DNA of 64,000 bases from an uncultured Verrucomicrobiae bacterium (GTDB lineage: Bacteria; Verrucomicrobiota; Verrucomicrobiia; Opitutales; JABDGR01): NCBI GenBank assembly GCA_963765205.1, contig CAVXVB010000008.1, forward strand, positions 443,049-507,048, in the 5' to 3' direction. Position numbers and translations under genes: made by a program. Shown here one piece after another: positions 176 to 5,975 of this stretch. The notes under the pieces were generated by a model. The model was not told the origin of the DNA. It saw only the letters and a list, made by a program, of their open reading frames with translations, and did no database searches. The first letter of the stretch is position 1; every line of letters starts with the position of its first letter.

Positions 176-445
176 GTGGGGGGGAAAAGATGGAAGACAG
201 GAGTCAGGTGATAGAAGCCGGACAGCGGGGCCGTGGGGGGTGTTGATAAAGTGGTTGGACTGGGTTGGATTTGGGCAAAAGGCGCTGAGGAGCCAAGGCA
301 CTTAGCCGCAGGTGATTTCCCCGACAATCAGAAGGCGTTTGCATTATTTTATTTAAATACAGCACATAATTTTTTCGGAATTATGCACTTCACAAAGGCC
401 ACGCTCTGACGGCCTAAGCTGGCCGATTCCCTGATTTTGGGGCGG

Positions 446-577
446 CTATTTCTTGCGGGCCTTGGCCTTCGCCGTCTTATACGGCGGGATGGCCTCTGGC
501 TTCACTTGCACGACCCGGCGCATCAGGTCTGCGAACCTGACGGGCGGATGGCGCAATTCTTGGGATTGCGGTTTCAT
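446..577 (-). CDS. Small basic protein (43 aa), IS passenger
   Basis: Hand translation MKPQSQELRHPPVRFADLMRRVVQVKPEAIPPYKTAKAKARKK*; below the ORF-track cutoff; divergent from the RHH gene. Confidence 0.5.
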   Translation of the reverse strand: MKPQSQELRHPPVRFADLMRRVVQVKPEAIPPYKTAKAKARKK

Positions 578-600
578 GGCTACGCTGTCAAATAGCACGG

Positions 601-831
601 ATGGGATATAAACGCAAGGGCGACAAAGGGGTATCCATTACCCTACCAGCAGAGCTTGTGGACTATATTGAAAAGCGAGCAAAGCGCATTAACGGGTCTA
701 AGTCATGGTATGTCGCGGAAATTATTCGCGCGTGGGTGGATGCTGGCGGGAAGCCAATCGGAAGGCTGGATGAGAAAATGCAAAATGACGAAGATGGGCT
801 TGGCAATCCACCGACTCAAAGTAAAAAGTGA
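601..831 (+). CDS. Ribbon-helix-helix (CopG/Arc-like) DNA-binding protein
   Basis: VSITLPAELVDYIEKRAKRINGSKSWYVAEIIRAW fits the RHH pattern. Confidence 0.75.
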   Translation: MGYKRKGDKGVSITLPAELVDYIEKRAKRINGSKSWYVAEIIRAWVDAGGKPIGRLDEKMQNDEDGLGNPPTQSKK

Positions 832-974
832 TATAAAGCTGGAGCTACCGGAGCTTATGAAGCTACTGAAGTAATTTAAGTTACCGGAGCTAGTTCGGGA
901 TAATCGTGAAACCGTCTTGTCATTCGGTAACGTTCCCGTATTTTCTCACTATGCCCGATGATAGACTATAAGTA

Positions 975-1595
975 ATGACGAAGCTCGACCTCGAAACGGC
1001 GGAGCAGCTTTTGGCATTGAGGTTGAGGCGGTATGATGAATTGAAAGTGGAAATTGCAAATGTGACTTCTCAAATTCAATCCTTAGTTGATGACATCGGT
1101 GCCGTTAAGTTAGAGCAGGCCAATCAACAAAATCTTGATGGCGGAACGCCTGCTAAAATTGAGCGTCCTGAAATCAAGACACCGGCCAATGATGCCGACA
1201 TTCGAGGGCGTGAAAAATACGGGGCGGCGCGCAAGGCAATAATTGTCCTTTTGCGCGAACAGGGGCCGCGTTTAATAACAACGGAAAAAATGCAGGCGGA
1301 ATTAAAAATTCCACCTTCTACATTATATCGAAACCTTACTGATTTGCAGGCGGATGGAGTTATTTCCAAAATTGGAAACGCATGGTGTTTTAGCGCAATG
1401 ATAAGTTCGTCCCCTTCCAGCTATCAGGCATACATAAATGAGCTTACAAATCAAGGCTTCATCGCAAACGTAGATTTAACTGCATCACCCCCGGCAACCA
1501 TTCCCTATACTTCCCCGAAACCCCCTAAGGCTCGGGGGCCTAACATTTCCAACAAATTTAATATGCCTCCACAAAACGGCGCGGCAACCGGGTGA
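975..1595 (+). CDS. Coiled-coil plus winged-helix protein
   Basis: N-terminal heptad helix; AELKIPPSTLYRNLTDLQADGVISK is wHTH-like; TTGTCA-16-TATTTT promoter candidate at 917-944. Confidence 0.65.
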   Translation: MTKLDLETAEQLLALRLRRYDELKVEIANVTSQIQSLVDDIGAVKLEQANQQNLDGGTPAKIERPEIKTPANDADIRGREKYGAARKAIIVLLREQGPRLITTEKMQAELKIPPSTLYRNLTDLQADGVISKIGNAWCFSAMISSSPSSYQAYINELTNQGFIANVDLTASPPATIPYTSPKPPKARGPNISNKFNMPPQNGAATG

Positions 1596-1627
1596 TCCCC
1601 ACTTAAGCGCGCCTCTGCAAAGAAATA

Positions 1628-1720
1628 ACCCCCTAACTCTGGCCCAACTTCGCGGGCGGAACCAGAAAGGGGGTCGGTAATCCCGAGGGGCCAGATTGCT
1701 CTGGCCGCTCGTTCTTTTCC
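1628..1720 (+). ncRNA. Structured leader upstream of the tRNA-like gene (two hairpins, second terminator-like)
   Basis: ACCCCCT(1628-34)/AGGGGGT(1668-74) with TCTGG/CCAGA inner stem; CGAG-G-GGCCAGA-ttgc-TCTGGCC-G-CTCG (1684-1711) followed by TTCTTTT. Confidence 0.45.
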
Positions 1721-1725
1721 AATTA

Positions 1726-1813
1726 GCCTATGTGGTGTAACTGGCAGCCACGTCCGCCTTGGGGGCGGTTGCCTGTGTGAGCAGGCGTGTGGGTTCGACC
1801 CCCACCATAGGCA
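1726..1813 (+). tRNA. Class II tRNA: Leu-type body with anticodon UGG (Pro); no encoded CCA
   Basis: Acceptor GCCTATG/CATAGGC; D arm GTG-TAACTGGCAGC-CAC; anticodon arm TCCGC-CTTGGGG-GCGGT; V arm GCCTGT-GTGA-GCAGGC; T arm GTGGG-TTCGACC-CCCAC; discriminator A. Confidence 0.85.
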
Positions 1814-1870
1814 TTTTTTATAGGATGACAAACAAAATTTTTAACCGAAAACTTGAACGAAAATAAATTT

Positions 1871-2317
1871 ATGAAACTGGAGATTTTTACCCTTTGCGAT
1901 GAAGCGCATGAAGCAAATGGAAAGCTCTATATCAATGGGGCATTCCAAAATCTTTTTTCGGCTGGCTTCCCATGTGTCCATCCAAGATTTTGTGTGGTCG
2001 CCCGCCTTAGATTTATTCCGATAGAGATTGGAGACCACGCCATCCAAGTTACATTCAAAAATGAAGACGGCAAAGATGTGCTATCTATCCCCGTAATTGA
2101 ACAGAAGTTTTCGGTTCAAATACCCGAAGATAAAACCTCCATTGCCCTTCACTGCATAATTCTTATTAACGCAACACAATTAGGGGCACCTGGAGAATAC
2201 ATGGTGGGTTTAGCCGTTGACCGTTTGGCCCAAGCAGAGCTTCCGTTGTATGTGTCTCAAATGCCCCCGCAAGCGCAATCGCCGGAGCCGCCTTCTGTTC
2301 ACGACGGGCCGCATTAG
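1871..2317 (+). CDS. DUF6941-like beta-sandwich protein
   Basis: MKLEIFTLCDEAHEANGKLYINGAF N-terminus and PGEY near the C-terminus resemble DUF6941; the ORF track starts at 1853. Confidence 0.6.
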   Translation: MKLEIFTLCDEAHEANGKLYINGAFQNLFSAGFPCVHPRFCVVARLRFIPIEIGDHAIQVTFKNEDGKDVLSIPVIEQKFSVQIPEDKTSIALHCIILINATQLGAPGEYMVGLAVDRLAQAELPLYVSQMPPQAQSPEPPSVHDGPH

Positions 2318-2384
2318 CCCTTTTTTGCTCTTCAAATTGGGAGGTTTGGCTCATGGCAAAAATTTATCATAACCCATATTTTTG

Positions 2385-3353
2385 TCAACCCCCTATCGTA
2401 ACTGAGGCGCAGGCTGGCTCCTTATACCGCAACCGCTTGCCTTCGATGTTTTGGAGTCCGGCAATCGTGCGCGCGCCGTCAGTCAACTTGCGGGTGTTAT
2501 AGCGATGATCGAACTCTGCGAGGTAGAGCGGCAAATGCTTGAGGGAAACATGATGGAAGGTGCCGACGATACCGCGCTTGAGCAGGCTGAAAAAGCCCTC
2601 CACAGTGTTTGTGTGAACGTCACCCCGGACATACTCCCCGGCAGAGTGATTGACCCGCGCGTGCTTAAAGCCCTTGGCCGCGCGTGGGTAGGGCCGGAAT
2701 TGGTCGGTATAGACCTTTGCGCCCTCCGCCACGTTGGCCTGAATAACCGCTTTGAGGTTGTTCCCGGTGACGCACGCCATGACGCGCGAGCGGGCCTTCC
2801 CGTCGCGCTGGACAAGCGAAACGACCGGAACCTTGTTGCCAGTGTAACGACGCCCCATGCCCTTTGTTTTGCCGCCAACGTAGGTTTCGTCAATTTCCAC
2901 GGTGCCGTCAAACTTCTGCCCGTCTAGCACTGGGTCTTTGAGCGCGTGGCGGATACGGTGAGCCATAAACAGGGCCGTGCGATAGCTGCCAAGGCCCAAC
3001 ACCCGTTGCAATTCCAACGCGGCAACGCCCTTCTTGGCCGACGCGAACAGATACCAGCCGATAAACCACTTGGACAGCGGGATATGGCTGTCCTCGAAAA
3101 CCGTGCCGACGGTGACGGTGAACTGCTTGTTGCACGCGCCGCACTGAATCAGGCCGGGGCGAACCTTCTTGGCCGGGTTCGCGGCAATGCGCCATAGGCT
3201 GTCCTGCTTGGCGTTGCGGCAATGGGGGCAAACCGGGCCGCTGGGCCACCGGATGGCCTCTAGGTAGGCGCGGGCCTTGTCCTCACTGTCGAAGTGCTGC
3301 ATGATTTCCGGCAGCGTGAGCGTCTCTGGGACTGGATTGAGTTGCTTATTCAT
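2385..3353 (-). CDS. IS1595-family (ISXO2-like) DDE transposase
   Basis: Zn ribbon CPHC..CGAC; VEIDETYVGG, YTD and HTNTVEGFFSLLKRG motifs. Confidence 0.95.
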   Translation of the reverse strand: MNKQLNPVPETLTLPEIMQHFDSEDKARAYLEAIRWPSGPVCPHCRNAKQDSLWRIAANPAKKVRPGLIQCGACNKQFTVTVGTVFEDSHIPLSKWFIGWYLFASAKKGVAALELQRVLGLGSYRTALFMAHRIRHALKDPVLDGQKFDGTVEIDETYVGGKTKGMGRRYTGNKVPVVSLVQRDGKARSRVMACVTGNNLKAVIQANVAEGAKVYTDQFRPYPRAAKGFKHARVNHSAGEYVRGDVHTNTVEGFFSLLKRGIVGTFHHVSLKHLPLYLAEFDHRYNTRKLTDGARTIAGLQNIEGKRLRYKEPACASVTIGG

Positions 3354-3359
3354 GCCCTC

Positions 3360-3387
3360 AATATAGCATAGTTCAAACCTTTGTCAA
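3360..3387 (-). promoter_or_regulatory. Sigma70 promoter for the transposase, -35 inside the IR, probably leaderless
   Basis: TTGACA-16 nt-TATATT with extended -10 TG, 6 nt before ATG 3353. Confidence 0.65.
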
Positions 3388-3655
3388 GTGCATAATTCCG
3401 AATTTTTTGGGCGGCAAGGAATGTTTTGATTTTATTCTCGAAGCGCATATACATAATATACCTCTTTGTGTTCAACTAGGGATCCATCATGAAGGTGAAC
3501 GGCTGAAGCAAAAAAATTTAATTTTTAAGAAATTTGATAAAAGGCTCCGCAAAACTGTTGGAGAACCGCATAAATATAAATCGATTATAGAAATGCAGTA
3601 CGTCAGACCAATAAAGTCAAAGGATTCGCCATAAGCACTTTTGCCCTAAAGTGAA

Positions 3656-5752
3656 TCACTGAGGTAGCTTTTTACCGTCACGTAGATTTCTATACCATGT
3701 AAGCGCCAAGAGGGGCCAAGCCCATTGGTAGGAAGTATATTTCAAATAAAAAATTCTCGGAAAGCCCGTTCCGGTAAACCATGGATAATGCCAGGAGCCG
3801 TCGGGGTGTTGGGTTTCTAACAGGTATTGGATGCCGCGTTCAATTGAAGGGCGGTCTAGTTTCGAGTTGGGGTCGGAGTCGGTAGTGGACGCGGCGCAAG
3901 CAAGTAAACCCAGCAAGGCCCAAGCCGTTTGGGAGGCGGTGGAGGGGTGGTGTAAGTTTTTAGTTTCTAGTTTTTGGTTTTTAGTTTCGGATTGGTCGGC
4001 AGCTTTTTCCATTTTCCATTTTCCATCTTCTATTATTTCCCCGTAACTCGGCAGTTCGCCGGTGGGGCCGGTGGGGGTTACTTGGAAAAACGGGGCGCCA
4101 GCGCCGCGGGTTTGGGGGTCGTGGTAGGTCCAGCAGGATTCGCCCCAGCCGCCGTCGGGGTTTTGCATTTTCTCCAGCCAGTCGCGGGCGCGCAGGACGC
4201 GGGGTTGGGTCATGTCTTCGCCGATGAGGGCGAGGCCGCGCAGGACGTGCGAGGTGCCGTAAATATAATTGACGCCCCAGCGGCCGAACCAGGAGCCGTC
4301 GGGTTCCTGGGTGCGCCAGACGAAGTCGAGGGCGCGCTGGACGAGGGGGTCGGCGCGGGAGTGGCCGGTTTTGGCGAGGGTTTCGAGGGCGCGGCCGGTG
4401 ATGTCGCTGCAGGGGGGGTCGAGGATGGCGTTGTGGTCGGCGAAGGGTACTTGTTCGAGCCAAGGGGTGGTGAGGTCGCGGTCGAAGGCGGCGAATCCGC
4501 CTTCCTTACATTGGAAGGCGCGGCACCAGGCCATGGCGCGCTGGAGGGCGGCGGCGCGGCGGGGTTCGTCGGTGGCGCGGAGGACGCGGAGGGCGAGGAC
4601 GACTTGGAAGGTGTCGTCCACGTCGGGGTAATACTCGTTGTTGAATTCGAAGGCCCAGCCGGCGGCGGTGGGGAAGGAGACGGTTTCGGCCCAGTCGCCT
4701 TTGATTTTGATTTCTCGGTCGAGGAGCCAGTCGGCGGTTTTTTGGAGGCGGGGGTCGGCGGCGGGGACGCCGGAGTCGGCGAGGCATTGGGCGATGATGG
4801 CGGTGTCCCAAACGGGGGAATAACAGGGGGCGACGCGGAGGTCGCCGGGGTCGCCGCGGACAAGGCCGTCGAAGTCGCGGGTTTCCTTGGCGAAGAGGGG
4901 GTGGTCTTTGAGGCCGAGGAGTTCGAGGGCGATGAGGGTGTTCAACATGCCGGGGAAGATGGCGCCCATGCCGTCGGAGCCGTCGCCGAGGCGGGCGAGC
5001 ATCCAGTCGCGCGCGGCGTCGAGGGCGCGCTGGCGGAGGAGGTCGGCGGGGAGGTGGTTGAGGACGCGGCCAAGCTGGTCGAGGGCGAGGAAGAGGTTGC
5101 GCCAGGAAAAGAATTCGTCGGAGCGGGGCAGTGACCAATCGCCGTGTTGGGTGCCACCGGGGTAAAGTTCGTCGAGCGAGGGGCAGGCGGGGAGGATGCG
5201 GACGGGTTTGTAATGGTTGATGACGGTGAGGGGGACGACGAGGTTGCGCGTCCAGGAACTCATTTTATAGATATGGAAGGGGGCCGAGGTGGGCAGGAGC
5301 ATCATTTCGGCGGGGATGAGCGGGCAGTATTGCCACGGGAAGAGGCCGCACATGGCGAGGTAGAGTTTGCCGAAGGTGTGGAGTTTGGGGATGCCGCCGA
5401 GGGCGAGGGCGCGTTCGCGGGCGCGGAGGAATTGGGGCGCGGTTGGCTCCATGCCGGTGAGGCGGAGGGCGTGGTAGCCTTTGATGGTGGCGGCGATTTC
5501 GGCGGGGCCGCCGGGGAACTGGGGCCAGCCGCCGTCGGGGAGCTGGCGGGCGAGGATGTGGGCGCGGCAGCGTTCGTTCTGGGCTTTCCCGGGCTGGCCG
5601 GCCCAGTGGTAATAGAGGACGAAGTCGGAGACGACGGTGCTGTCCACAATCAACTCGCACTCCCAAAAACCGCGGGGGTCGAAGCGGGAGAAGAGGTAGT
5701 CTTGGGCGCGGGCGATGGCGTCGCTGACGTTGATGCAGGCGGGAGCGGACAT
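3656..5752 (-). CDS. shc: Squalene-hopene cyclase
   Basis: YYPDVDDT (DXDD), QW repeats (QLPDGGW, QEPDGSWFGRWGVNY, QNPDGGWGE), TGTGFPR; carries an insertion of about 50 aa. Confidence 0.95.
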   Translation of the reverse strand: MSAPACINVSDAIARAQDYLFSRFDPRGFWECELIVDSTVVSDFVLYYHWAGQPGKAQNERCRAHILARQLPDGGWPQFPGGPAEIAATIKGYHALRLTGMEPTAPQFLRARERALALGGIPKLHTFGKLYLAMCGLFPWQYCPLIPAEMMLLPTSAPFHIYKMSSWTRNLVVPLTVINHYKPVRILPACPSLDELYPGGTQHGDWSLPRSDEFFSWRNLFLALDQLGRVLNHLPADLLRQRALDAARDWMLARLGDGSDGMGAIFPGMLNTLIALELLGLKDHPLFAKETRDFDGLVRGDPGDLRVAPCYSPVWDTAIIAQCLADSGVPAADPRLQKTADWLLDREIKIKGDWAETVSFPTAAGWAFEFNNEYYPDVDDTFQVVLALRVLRATDEPRRAAALQRAMAWCRAFQCKEGGFAAFDRDLTTPWLEQVPFADHNAILDPPCSDITGRALETLAKTGHSRADPLVQRALDFVWRTQEPDGSWFGRWGVNYIYGTSHVLRGLALIGEDMTQPRVLRARDWLEKMQNPDGGWGESCWTYHDPQTRGAGAPFFQVTPTGPTGELPSYGEIIEDGKWKMEKAADQSETKNQKLETKNLHHPSTASQTAWALLGLLACAASTTDSDPNSKLDRPSIERGIQYLLETQHPDGSWHYPWFTGTGFPRIFYLKYTSYQWAWPLLALTWYRNLRDGKKLPQ

Positions 5753-5789
5753 GGGCAAAGTGGGGAATTTGGCGGAATCGCGCGGTGCC

Positions 5790-5975
5790 TTCAACATCCA
5801 ATCCCGCAATCGCGGGAAACATCCAACATTCAACATCGAATGCCGGAAACCAAGCGCTTAACGTCCGAGATCAAACAGGCAACGCTCAACGTTTAACGCT
5901 TAACGCTCAAGTCAAAGCCGGTTATTTTGCCTTTCATTGGATGTTCGATGTTGGGAGTTCGATGTTGGATGTTCT
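5790..5975. repeat. Heptamer (TYCAACA/TCGAACA-type) palindromic repeat element
   Basis: catccaacattcaacatcgaa ... ttggatgttcgatgttgggagttcgatgttggatgtt between shc and hpnG. Confidence 0.7.

Follow-up and report, generated by a model that had tools for sequence, protein, structure and literature searches.

The window, that is, the whole 64,000-nucleotide stretch of DNA analysed here, holds a complete insertion sequence of the IS1595 family whose cargo includes a tRNA gene with a leucine-type body and a proline (UGG) anticodon. Comparison with related elements makes a strong case, although not one that is proof against the relatedness of the genes compared, that this tRNA is real, conserved and coupled to the transposase of its own element; we did not find such coupling in the literature searched, mostly non-subscription papers. 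The tRNA itself appears to belong to an already known irregular kind, and its role with the transposase would be the new part.

The element and its tRNA

IS1595 elements encode a transposase with a zinc ribbon and a DDE domain, end in inverted repeats of ~25 bp, duplicate 8 bp of their target and carry variable passenger genes. The element in the window belongs to this family, having a transposase with zinc-ribbon (PF12760) and ISXO2-like DDE (PF12762) domains that both score over cut-off, terminal inverted repeats and an 8-bp target duplication. The inverted repeats are 25 nt long (374-398 and 3378-3402, 96% identical) and the 8-mer AATTTTTT borders both ends, so that the element spans 376-3400 (3,025 bp). 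A preliminary description of this DNA had placed the tRNA inside an IS1595 element, and this was borne out. The element is inserted ~250 bp downstream of a squalene-hopene cyclase gene (3656-5836, minus strand). Its features are:

368..375, no strand: left copy of the 8-bp target-site duplication, AATTTTTT
376..398, plus: terminal inverted repeat at the end distal to the transposase start (21/22 match to the other end)
601..831, plus: cargo gene for a ribbon-helix-helix protein of 76 aa (PF01402, E 7e-4, just under cut-off)
975..1595, plus: gene for a 206-aa protein with a winged-helix domain (weak HTH_24 and other matches), directly upstream of the tRNA
1661..1725, plus: strong hairpin(s) immediately 5' of the tRNA (z -3.2)
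1726..1813, plus: class II tRNA, 7/5, with Leu identity elements and anticodon UGG (ARAGORN, Rfam, read from the sequence)
1726-1732/1806-1812, plus: acceptor stem, 7 bp (read from the sequence)
1735-1751, plus: D arm with A14, A15, G18, G19 and A20a (read from the sequence)
1753-1757/1765-1769, plus: anticodon stem, U27.U43 unpaired (read from the sequence)
1758-1764, plus: anticodon loop CU-UGG-GG (read from the sequence)
1760..1762, plus: anticodon UGG, pairing with CCA (ARAGORN, read contig)
1770-1788, plus: variable region of 19 nt with a 6-bp stem and GUGA loop; U48 at 1788
within 1726-1813, plus: T arm with a 5-bp stem and TTCGA loop; A73 at 1813 (read from the sequence)
1853..2317, plus: cargo gene for a DUF6941 protein of 154 aa (PF22091, E 1e-31)
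2385..3353, minus: IS1595 transposase, 322 aa, zinc ribbon, HTH and DDE (PF12760 51.3 bits, PF12762 123.6 bits)
2415..2417, minus: CCA codon 313, at the C-terminal RLxYxx site
2931..2933, minus: CCA codon 141, in the linker between the HTH and DDE domains
3378..3400, minus: terminal inverted repeat on the transposase upstream side
3401..3408, no strand: right copy of the target-site duplication

ARAGORN called a single tRNA in the 64-kb window, at 1726-1813 on the plus strand with anticodon tgg, and the same interval matched Rfam RF00005 at 41.1 bits (gathering 29, E 2.7e-6). The tRNA-Sec model gave only 26 bits against 47, and a preQ1-II match (26.3 bits against 47) was set aside as chance. 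E. coli LeuRS needs A73, A15-U48, G18G19 and A20a and does not need the anticodon (PMC9976931); the element tRNA has all of these as well as the long variable arm of the published Leu set, and the nearest loci in the phylum are all tRNA-Leu, in agreement with the leucine-type body proposed earlier. What is missing is the Leu anticodon (A35), and the tRNA is therefore not a canonical tRNA-Leu isoacceptor. Among tRNA-Pro features, G35, G36 and A73 are present, whereas C1-G72, which E. coli Pro identity requires (PMC9976931), G15-C48 and the short variable loop are replaced by G1-C72, A15-U48 and the 19-nt variable region.

The free-energy fold of the 88-mer alone has a z-score of only -1.85 (11/200 shuffles were equally good), so the case for a tRNA rests on the covariance model and the family rather than on folding energy. 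Read support at the anticodon comes from one of the four runs X1-X4, namely X1, possibly the assembly's own source, in which one contig spans the anticodon with 0 differences; the family evidence described below makes sequencing error a very unlikely origin of the UGG reading.

The remaining cargo offers few clues. CCA accounts for 3 of the 4 Pro codons of the ribbon-helix-helix gene, and the DUF6941 cargo recurs in another element (L458). For the 206-aa winged-helix protein no homologue was found except itself, with Atlas matches below 0.9; open reading frames of comparable size and place recur in related elements, and no fixed CCA sites were seen in the two small families (6 and 4 rows) of such upstream frames. 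Its product is possibly a regulator, and the gene is probably co-transcribed with the tRNA; no conserved promoter was seen just upstream of the tRNA across related loci. The 5' hairpin region contains a terminator-like sequence (1689-1706) and has counterparts throughout the family (z < -2 in 56/94 loci vs 13/94 in a control window), and may serve processing or attenuation. A promoter-like site (11/12) at 3387-3360 overlaps the transposase-side terminal inverted repeat. No synthetase gene is present among the element's reading frames.

The host is a soil bacterium with complete sets of its own tRNA-Pro (UGG, CGG and GGG) and tRNA-Leu (five) genes; the element tRNA is single-copy. In the three main host tRNA-Pro genes the first base is C and the loops are short. 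The host makes little use of CCA (8.5% of Pro codons, 5.1 per 1,000). Its LeuRS is of the bacterial type, and leucylation of the element tRNA by this enzyme, followed by Pro-to-Leu reading of CCA, is likely from the identity elements. A caveat that had gone unnoticed earlier is that the host ProRS is E-type (eukaryote/archaeon-like), and proline charging of the UGG tRNA may hence be possible. Elsewhere in the host genome (G000), at C9:1287772-1288740, roughly a dozen short tRNA genes of irregular type form an array.

A family of Leu-body tRNAs with mismatched anticodons

Direct searches returned little. A DNA search of 401 genomes of the phylum gave no close homologue and only ordinary tRNA-Leu (19/19 loci checked), plasmids gave none and phages 2 short matches; a transposase search of the same 401 genomes matched 2 genomes with no additional tRNA, and viral contigs gave no match when searched for loci by single proteins. 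Named homologues of the window transposase are from Verrucomicrobiota. D-arm matches in viruses carry Leu anticodons in 86 of 87 distinct cases.

Scans for a pattern in which a non-Leu anticodon accompanies a D arm of Leu type (A15, G18G19 and A20a being part of the pattern, U48 not) uncovered a large family. The viral scan returned 113 loci; among the 148 genome-collection matches listed, 41 were full UGG cloverleaves and the other 107, not being full cloverleaves (many resemble tRNA-Leu genes with introns or repeats of half a tRNA), were dropped; and metagenomes yielded at least 104 distinct A73 Leu-body cloverleaves with non-Leu anticodons (42 UGG, 15 CGC, 7 GUC and 7 UUA among the 104 listed). 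There are at least 92 distinct Leu-body tRNAs with UGG, from several phyla and with covarying stems; record titles among the matches listed name Acidobacteriota, Alphaproteobacteria, Planctomycetota, Verrucomicrobiota and Gemmatimonadota. Among the 92 listed, A15:U48 is kept in 91, G1:C72 is found in 76 and C1:G72 in 8, and the variable region ranges from 14 to 37 nt; A73 is kept in 54/54 in scans that did not demand it. The closest listed member is only 74% identical to the window tRNA.

The family also puts in proportion three irregularities to which the preliminary description had drawn attention. The C32-G38 combination is present and minor, occurring in 6 of the 92 members listed; the CCA end is indeed not encoded, which is minor too, as it is unencoded in 60 of the 92 and in 27 of 55 host tRNAs; and the U27.U43 mismatch is real and peculiar to this copy (1/92 listed), and we rate it minor.

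The link to insertion sequences is consistent. Of the 23 listed genome loci with long flanks, 16 have an IS1595 transposase no more than 4 kb away, and, among 40 loci examined, the tRNA lay inside the element in all 22 (window included) for which both ends and a target duplication were found. In 80 viral IS1595 loci chosen by transposase alone, i.e., an unselected sample, 6 carry a clear-fold Leu-body tRNA (4 UGG, 1 AGG, 1 GGA), and none of the 80 has a tRNA with a Leu anticodon inside the element. On the transposase tree the UGG label needs 15 changes, at least 9 of them forced by well-supported branches. Hence, the concern that homologues would all have Leu anticodons or be decayed is answered, as they keep UGG, covarying stems and linkage to insertion sequences. 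Similar Leu-body tRNAs occur in IS1-like (L262, L385, L400, L412, L421, L462) and IS4/IS5-like (L407, L408, L419) elements, the anticodons across the three groups being UGG, AGG, UUA, UGC, UCC, GUC, GGA and UGA. The cargo is variable, no gene being constant (48/71 cargo reading frames scanned), and toxin-antitoxin-type genes are frequent (ParE, Phd/YefM, PemK, Fic, Schlafen-like).

Several other observations were made in these scans. One 1,128-bp element (L158/L425) has IS1-like ends and a UGG tRNA and is too short for an IS1-like transposase plus cargo. The CGC Leu-body group (15 distinct listed; L392, L396, L399, L403, L411, L428, L455, L460 and others) had no transposase found nearby, and the GUC and UUA groups (7 listed each) recur in metagenomes. 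A second irregular tRNA stands in tandem with the Leu-body tRNA in L558 (UAU), L355, L360, L375, L413 and L502. Multi-copy repeats in Oscillospiraceae, Ruminococcus and Lachnospiraceae (L285, L304, L317, L332, L364, L377) join a tRNA-Leu 5' half to conserved non-tRNA sequence, and L265, L268, L272, L283 and others are presumably tRNA-Leu genes with group I introns in the anticodon loop.

Among described systems, the allo-tRNAs come closest. These are 8/4 or 9/3 tRNAs with Ser or Ala identity found near transposon-related genes (PMC5389517), and they share with the window tRNA a long arm, a mismatched anticodon and recognition by synthetases blind to the anticodon (PMC5389517; PMC7609411; charging is predicted here), as well as occurrence in soil bacteria and a loose link to transposon-related genes and toxin-antitoxin systems (PMC5389517). 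The window tRNA differs in being 7/5 with Leu identity, and has A73 and C3-G70 in place of the Ser/Ala marks (G73/U73, G3:U70). The supplement of Mukai et al. (2017) contains 16 rows labelled 'tRNA2, tRNALeu (7/5)' from soil metatranscriptomes, all UUA (PMC5389517), which likewise combine a 7/5 Leu body with a non-Leu anticodon; these belong to polycistrons of irregular tRNAs, as do, in tandem form, some relatives of the window tRNA, whereas the window tRNA is single and reads UGG. The text of that supplement has no UGG anticodon, 'transposase' or 'IS1595', the accessible part of the paper describes no link of irregular tRNAs to transposase codons (PMC5389517), and the portion of the review PMC7609411 consulted adds nothing on the 7/5 Leu-body type. 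The tRNAProX/ProRSx pair of Streptomyces and Kitasatospora is a natural bacterial dual-identity tRNA that mistranslates a sense codon (PMC10404621), as is predicted here. However, tRNAProX has a Pro body, an Ala, Asn or Thr anticodon and an adjacent dedicated synthetase (PMC10404621), as opposed to a Leu body and a Pro anticodon on an insertion sequence, matched to its transposase and without synthetase. Among 'transporter IS' (a term used in PMC5009743) with passenger genes, the IS1595 members share the family features of our element, the tRNA passenger being the difference. Neither a miscoding tRNA borne by an insertion sequence nor tRNA cargo in IS1595 was found in the literature searched (mostly non-subscription papers), and the available text of a 2024 mistranslation review does not contain 'transpos' (PMC11415595).

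CCA codons in the transposase

The likely target of the tRNA, a point absent from the preliminary description, is the transposase of its own element. In the transposases of 33 UGG elements, CCA makes up 126 of 411 Pro codons (31%), vs 56/450 in 44 complete and 97/748 in 72 partial tRNA-less transposases (12-13%). GC3 is 0.70 in both main sets, NNA codons in the other four-fold boxes are at 0.124 in UGG genes vs 0.106-0.112 in tRNA-less ones, and no other synonymous codon deviates as strongly as CCA (odds 3.0; p-values at the codon level take related genes to be independent and overstate the significance). The codons concentrate at particular places: the linker site has CCA in 35/38 UGG genes vs 13/114 tRNA-less, the C-terminal site in 29/38 vs 11/114, and both in 28/38 vs 2/114, with no excess in the zinc-ribbon/HTH core (6/119 vs 36/510) and a median of 4 (up to 8) CCA codons per gene. 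The window transposase has CCA at residues 7, 9, 141, 223 and 313, and so at both family sites, which its closest tRNA-less sister (L023, 79% identical) lacks. Five new UGG elements picked by transposase only had CCA at the N-terminal site in 5/5, the linker in 4/5 and the C-terminus in 4/5.

The preferred codon also follows the anticodon. The only two CCT codons of an element with an AGG tRNA (L550) sit at the linker and C-terminal sites, and in an element with a UGC tRNA (L699) GCA makes up 10/22 Ala codons vs 389/2,945. In these comparisons 21 duplicate transposase loci were skipped; a profile search revealed tRNAs in L508, whose codons had already raised suspicion, and in L550, and both were taken out of the controls; and L540 and L635 were excluded from the controls in the column-conservation analysis only. 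Exceptions do occur: L674/L675 is complete and tRNA-less yet has CCA at two sites, L635 has both CCA sites with no tRNA within 9 kb, L680 (AGG) has its 3 CCT codons away from the usual sites, and no clear codon-site match was seen in GGA, GUC and UGU elements.

Relatedness among the genes limits how these numbers should be read. Only 9 tree-independent pairs are available, which point in the same direction (linker 3.9 vs 0, C-terminus 4.9 vs 0.2) and are not significant (median p 0.125 and 0.0625, respectively). Within the same genome, CCA use was higher in 7 of 10 comparisons, lower in 2 and tied in 1; in the host, tRNA-less IS1595 relatives serving as such controls lie at C9:261449-264939 and near C5 5416 and C9 960854. 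We therefore regard the codon-anticodon coupling as statistically strong but not tree-proof, and consider an action of some kind by the tRNA on the codons of its transposase highly probable. Roles as decoy, antitoxin or structural RNA, which had been entertained at first, found no support, as the cargo is variable and the codon tracks the anticodon.

What CCA stands for differs between sites. It is enriched at tolerant columns (116/284 vs 88/510) and not at the most conserved prolines (4/67 vs 18/283 in controls), and when all CCA sites are taken together, the closest relatives without a tRNA have Pro in 29% and Leu in 4%. At the linker and N-terminal sites the tRNA-less sisters L023, L026, L697 and L698 keep Pro through CCG, CCC or CCT, so leucine is not needed there. 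We accordingly rejected the idea that all CCA codons fall on conserved-Leu columns, since residues 7, 9 and 141 are Pro in 97, 106 and 107 of 119 homologues; it holds at the C-terminal site only.

At the C-terminal RLxYxx site, 12 of 87 tRNA-less genes have Leu in frame, followed by Ile, Thr or Val in 9 of the 12. Another 55 have an NCT or NTT codon (ACT in 17/17 Thr codons, CCT in 18/22 Pro codons), and in 50 of these 55 it is the +1 frame that gives Leu and then Ile, Thr or Val, vs 0/55 in frame 0; the Leu of the +1 frame is encoded by five different codons and is in no case replaced by Phe, irrespective of which base is skipped. The +1-frame tail is conserved and basic, starts Leu-(Thr/Val/Ile)-Lys-Pro, often after CGG CGG, and is found in genes of which 20/55 belong to complete elements (median identity 52%; e.g., L553, L557, L559, L560, L567, L573 and L595). 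It is a candidate for a programmed +1 shift or slippage, and, according to a 2016 review (PMC5009743), no insertion sequence with ribosomal frameshifting of the +1 type had yet been identified. Neither pattern is seen in 18/87 tRNA-less genes.

Where UGG genes have CCA at this position (22 genes), Ile, Thr or Val comes next in frame in 12, vs a background of 17.6% (p 1e-4), and in the +1 frame in none. Among the 119 nearest homologues of the window transposase, Pro-(Ile/Thr/Val) (32/61) alternates with Leu-(Ile/Thr/Val) (15/20). The complete tRNA-less sisters L697, L674 and L026 have Met, Cys or Val there rather than Pro. Relatives thus encode Leu either in the reading frame itself or in the +1 frame, and CCA stands where leucine belongs; we infer three possible routes to the C-terminal leucine, namely a Leu codon, an apparent +1 shift and the tRNA. 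Against a simple picture, CCA is absent from the exact site in 11/33 UGG genes, and the window transposase has Ala after it. Slippage at CCA itself was rejected, there being no shared flanking bases and no conserved +1 tail after CCA. A case for ochre (UUA) tRNAs is weak: L417 has TAA at the site, but the UGG element L544 stops there too (0/85 tRNA-less controls do), and the IS1-like UUA elements L400 and L412 end in TGA. In structure models of the transposase the tail is low-confidence whether Pro or Leu is placed there, and a fold search with the model matched only distant DDE enzymes.

How the tRNA may act, and what it would mean

The reading we favour, because leucine belongs at the C-terminal site and because of the precedent of IS1 and IS3, is that the element tRNA inserts leucine at CCA codons of its own transposase and thereby enables its activity; in our judgement the balance for and against it is even. 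Host LeuRS would charge the tRNA with leucine, and at CCA, which the host seldom uses, the tRNA would compete with the tRNA-Pro(UGG) of the host. Leucine at residue 313 would restore the Leu-(Ile/Thr/Val) ending of relatives, and only the recoded fraction of the transposase would be fully active. That is, the tRNA would keep transposase activity low and tied to its own expression, similar to frameshifting in IS1 and IS3, in which low-level recoding yields active transposase and sets the transposition rate (PMC5009743). The linker and N-terminal CCA sites would probably tune the response, by a pause or by damping, and host proteins would bear a small Pro-to-Leu cost. As in the frameshift-gated IS1, IS3, IS5 and IS630, a rare recoding event is proposed to set the level of active transposase (PMC5009743), although here an element-encoded tRNA would change the residue, not the frame.

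The opposite effect, i.e., that leucine at CCA spoils or poisons the transposase, so that a trans-acting tRNA rising with copy number damps transposition, we consider unlikely, even though the several CCA codons per gene would suit it better than they suit the enabling role. It would also fit the normal Pro at linker and N-terminal sites in tRNA-less sisters, the many anticodons found on Leu bodies in several IS families (diverse substitutions being easier to understand as damage), and the IS1-like L262, whose CCA codons coincide with conserved prolines. Control of transposase translation by a small RNA of the element has a precedent in IS10 RNA-OUT (PMC1994261), which pairs with the 5' end of the mRNA, whereas the tRNA would act through codon reading. 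Nevertheless, damage is hard to reconcile with CCA enrichment at tolerant columns rather than at the most conserved prolines, and with leucine being the natural residue of relatives at the C-terminal site.

Slightly less probable again is that the amino acid is irrelevant, or proline, and that a rare codon at domain boundaries sets pauses that tune yield or cis-preference. The rarity of CCA in the host and the tolerant, domain-edge position that the structure model suggests for its sites would agree with this, and pausing does affect the cis-preference of the IS911 transposase (PMC5009743). In addition, archaeal tRNA-Pro shares G1-C72, A73, G35 and G36 with the element tRNA, and the host ProRS is E-type; yet a bacterial E-type ProRS still reads G72/A73 (PMC11229370), and among five other family hosts ProRS is P-type only in 2, E-type only in 2, or of both types. 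A plain tRNA-Pro would suffice for pausing, whereas all 6 clear-fold tRNAs in the 80 unselected loci are Leu bodies with non-Leu anticodons, and the Leu-(Ile/Thr/Val) equivalence would be left unexplained.

Mistranslation directed at the host or at phages (stress tolerance, a toxin, or defence against CCA-rich genes), with the transposase codons as a by-product, seems quite improbable. Toxin-antitoxin-type cargo is frequent, allo-tRNAs, which show toxicity in E. coli, lie near toxin-antitoxin systems (PMC5389517), and tRNAProX can aid stress tolerance (PMC10404621); but no cargo gene is constant, and a general toxin should purge CCA from the transposase, where the codon instead shows a three-fold enrichment, occupies fixed sites and changes when the anticodon does. 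Finally, we hold it very improbable that the window copy is a captured tRNA-Leu(UAG) of phage type, altered by chance and now silent or in decay, since, despite its private U27.U43, uncommon G38, phage-type D arm and distance from its closest listed relative, the remaining stems are intact, the element ends are perfect and, unlike in the tRNA-less sister L023, the transposase has CCA at both family sites.

Taken more broadly, the enabling role would mean that private, anticodon-switched Leu tRNAs in insertion sequences of many phyla recode their own transposases, an element-local code acting as a transposition switch, with CCA read as leucine and the +1 shift being alternative gates to an essential C-terminal leucine in IS1595; sequence comparisons leave us equally inclined to accept and to doubt this general form. 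Such genes are hidden in annotations because ARAGORN calls the Leu-body tRNAs with UGG ordinary tRNA-Pro. If the model is true, the orphan mismatched tRNAs, for which Mukai and colleagues could draw only a loose link to transposons, would have a function, missense recoding directed by a tRNA would join the known means of limiting a transposase, and many soil bacteria would constantly mistranslate Pro as Leu at a low level.
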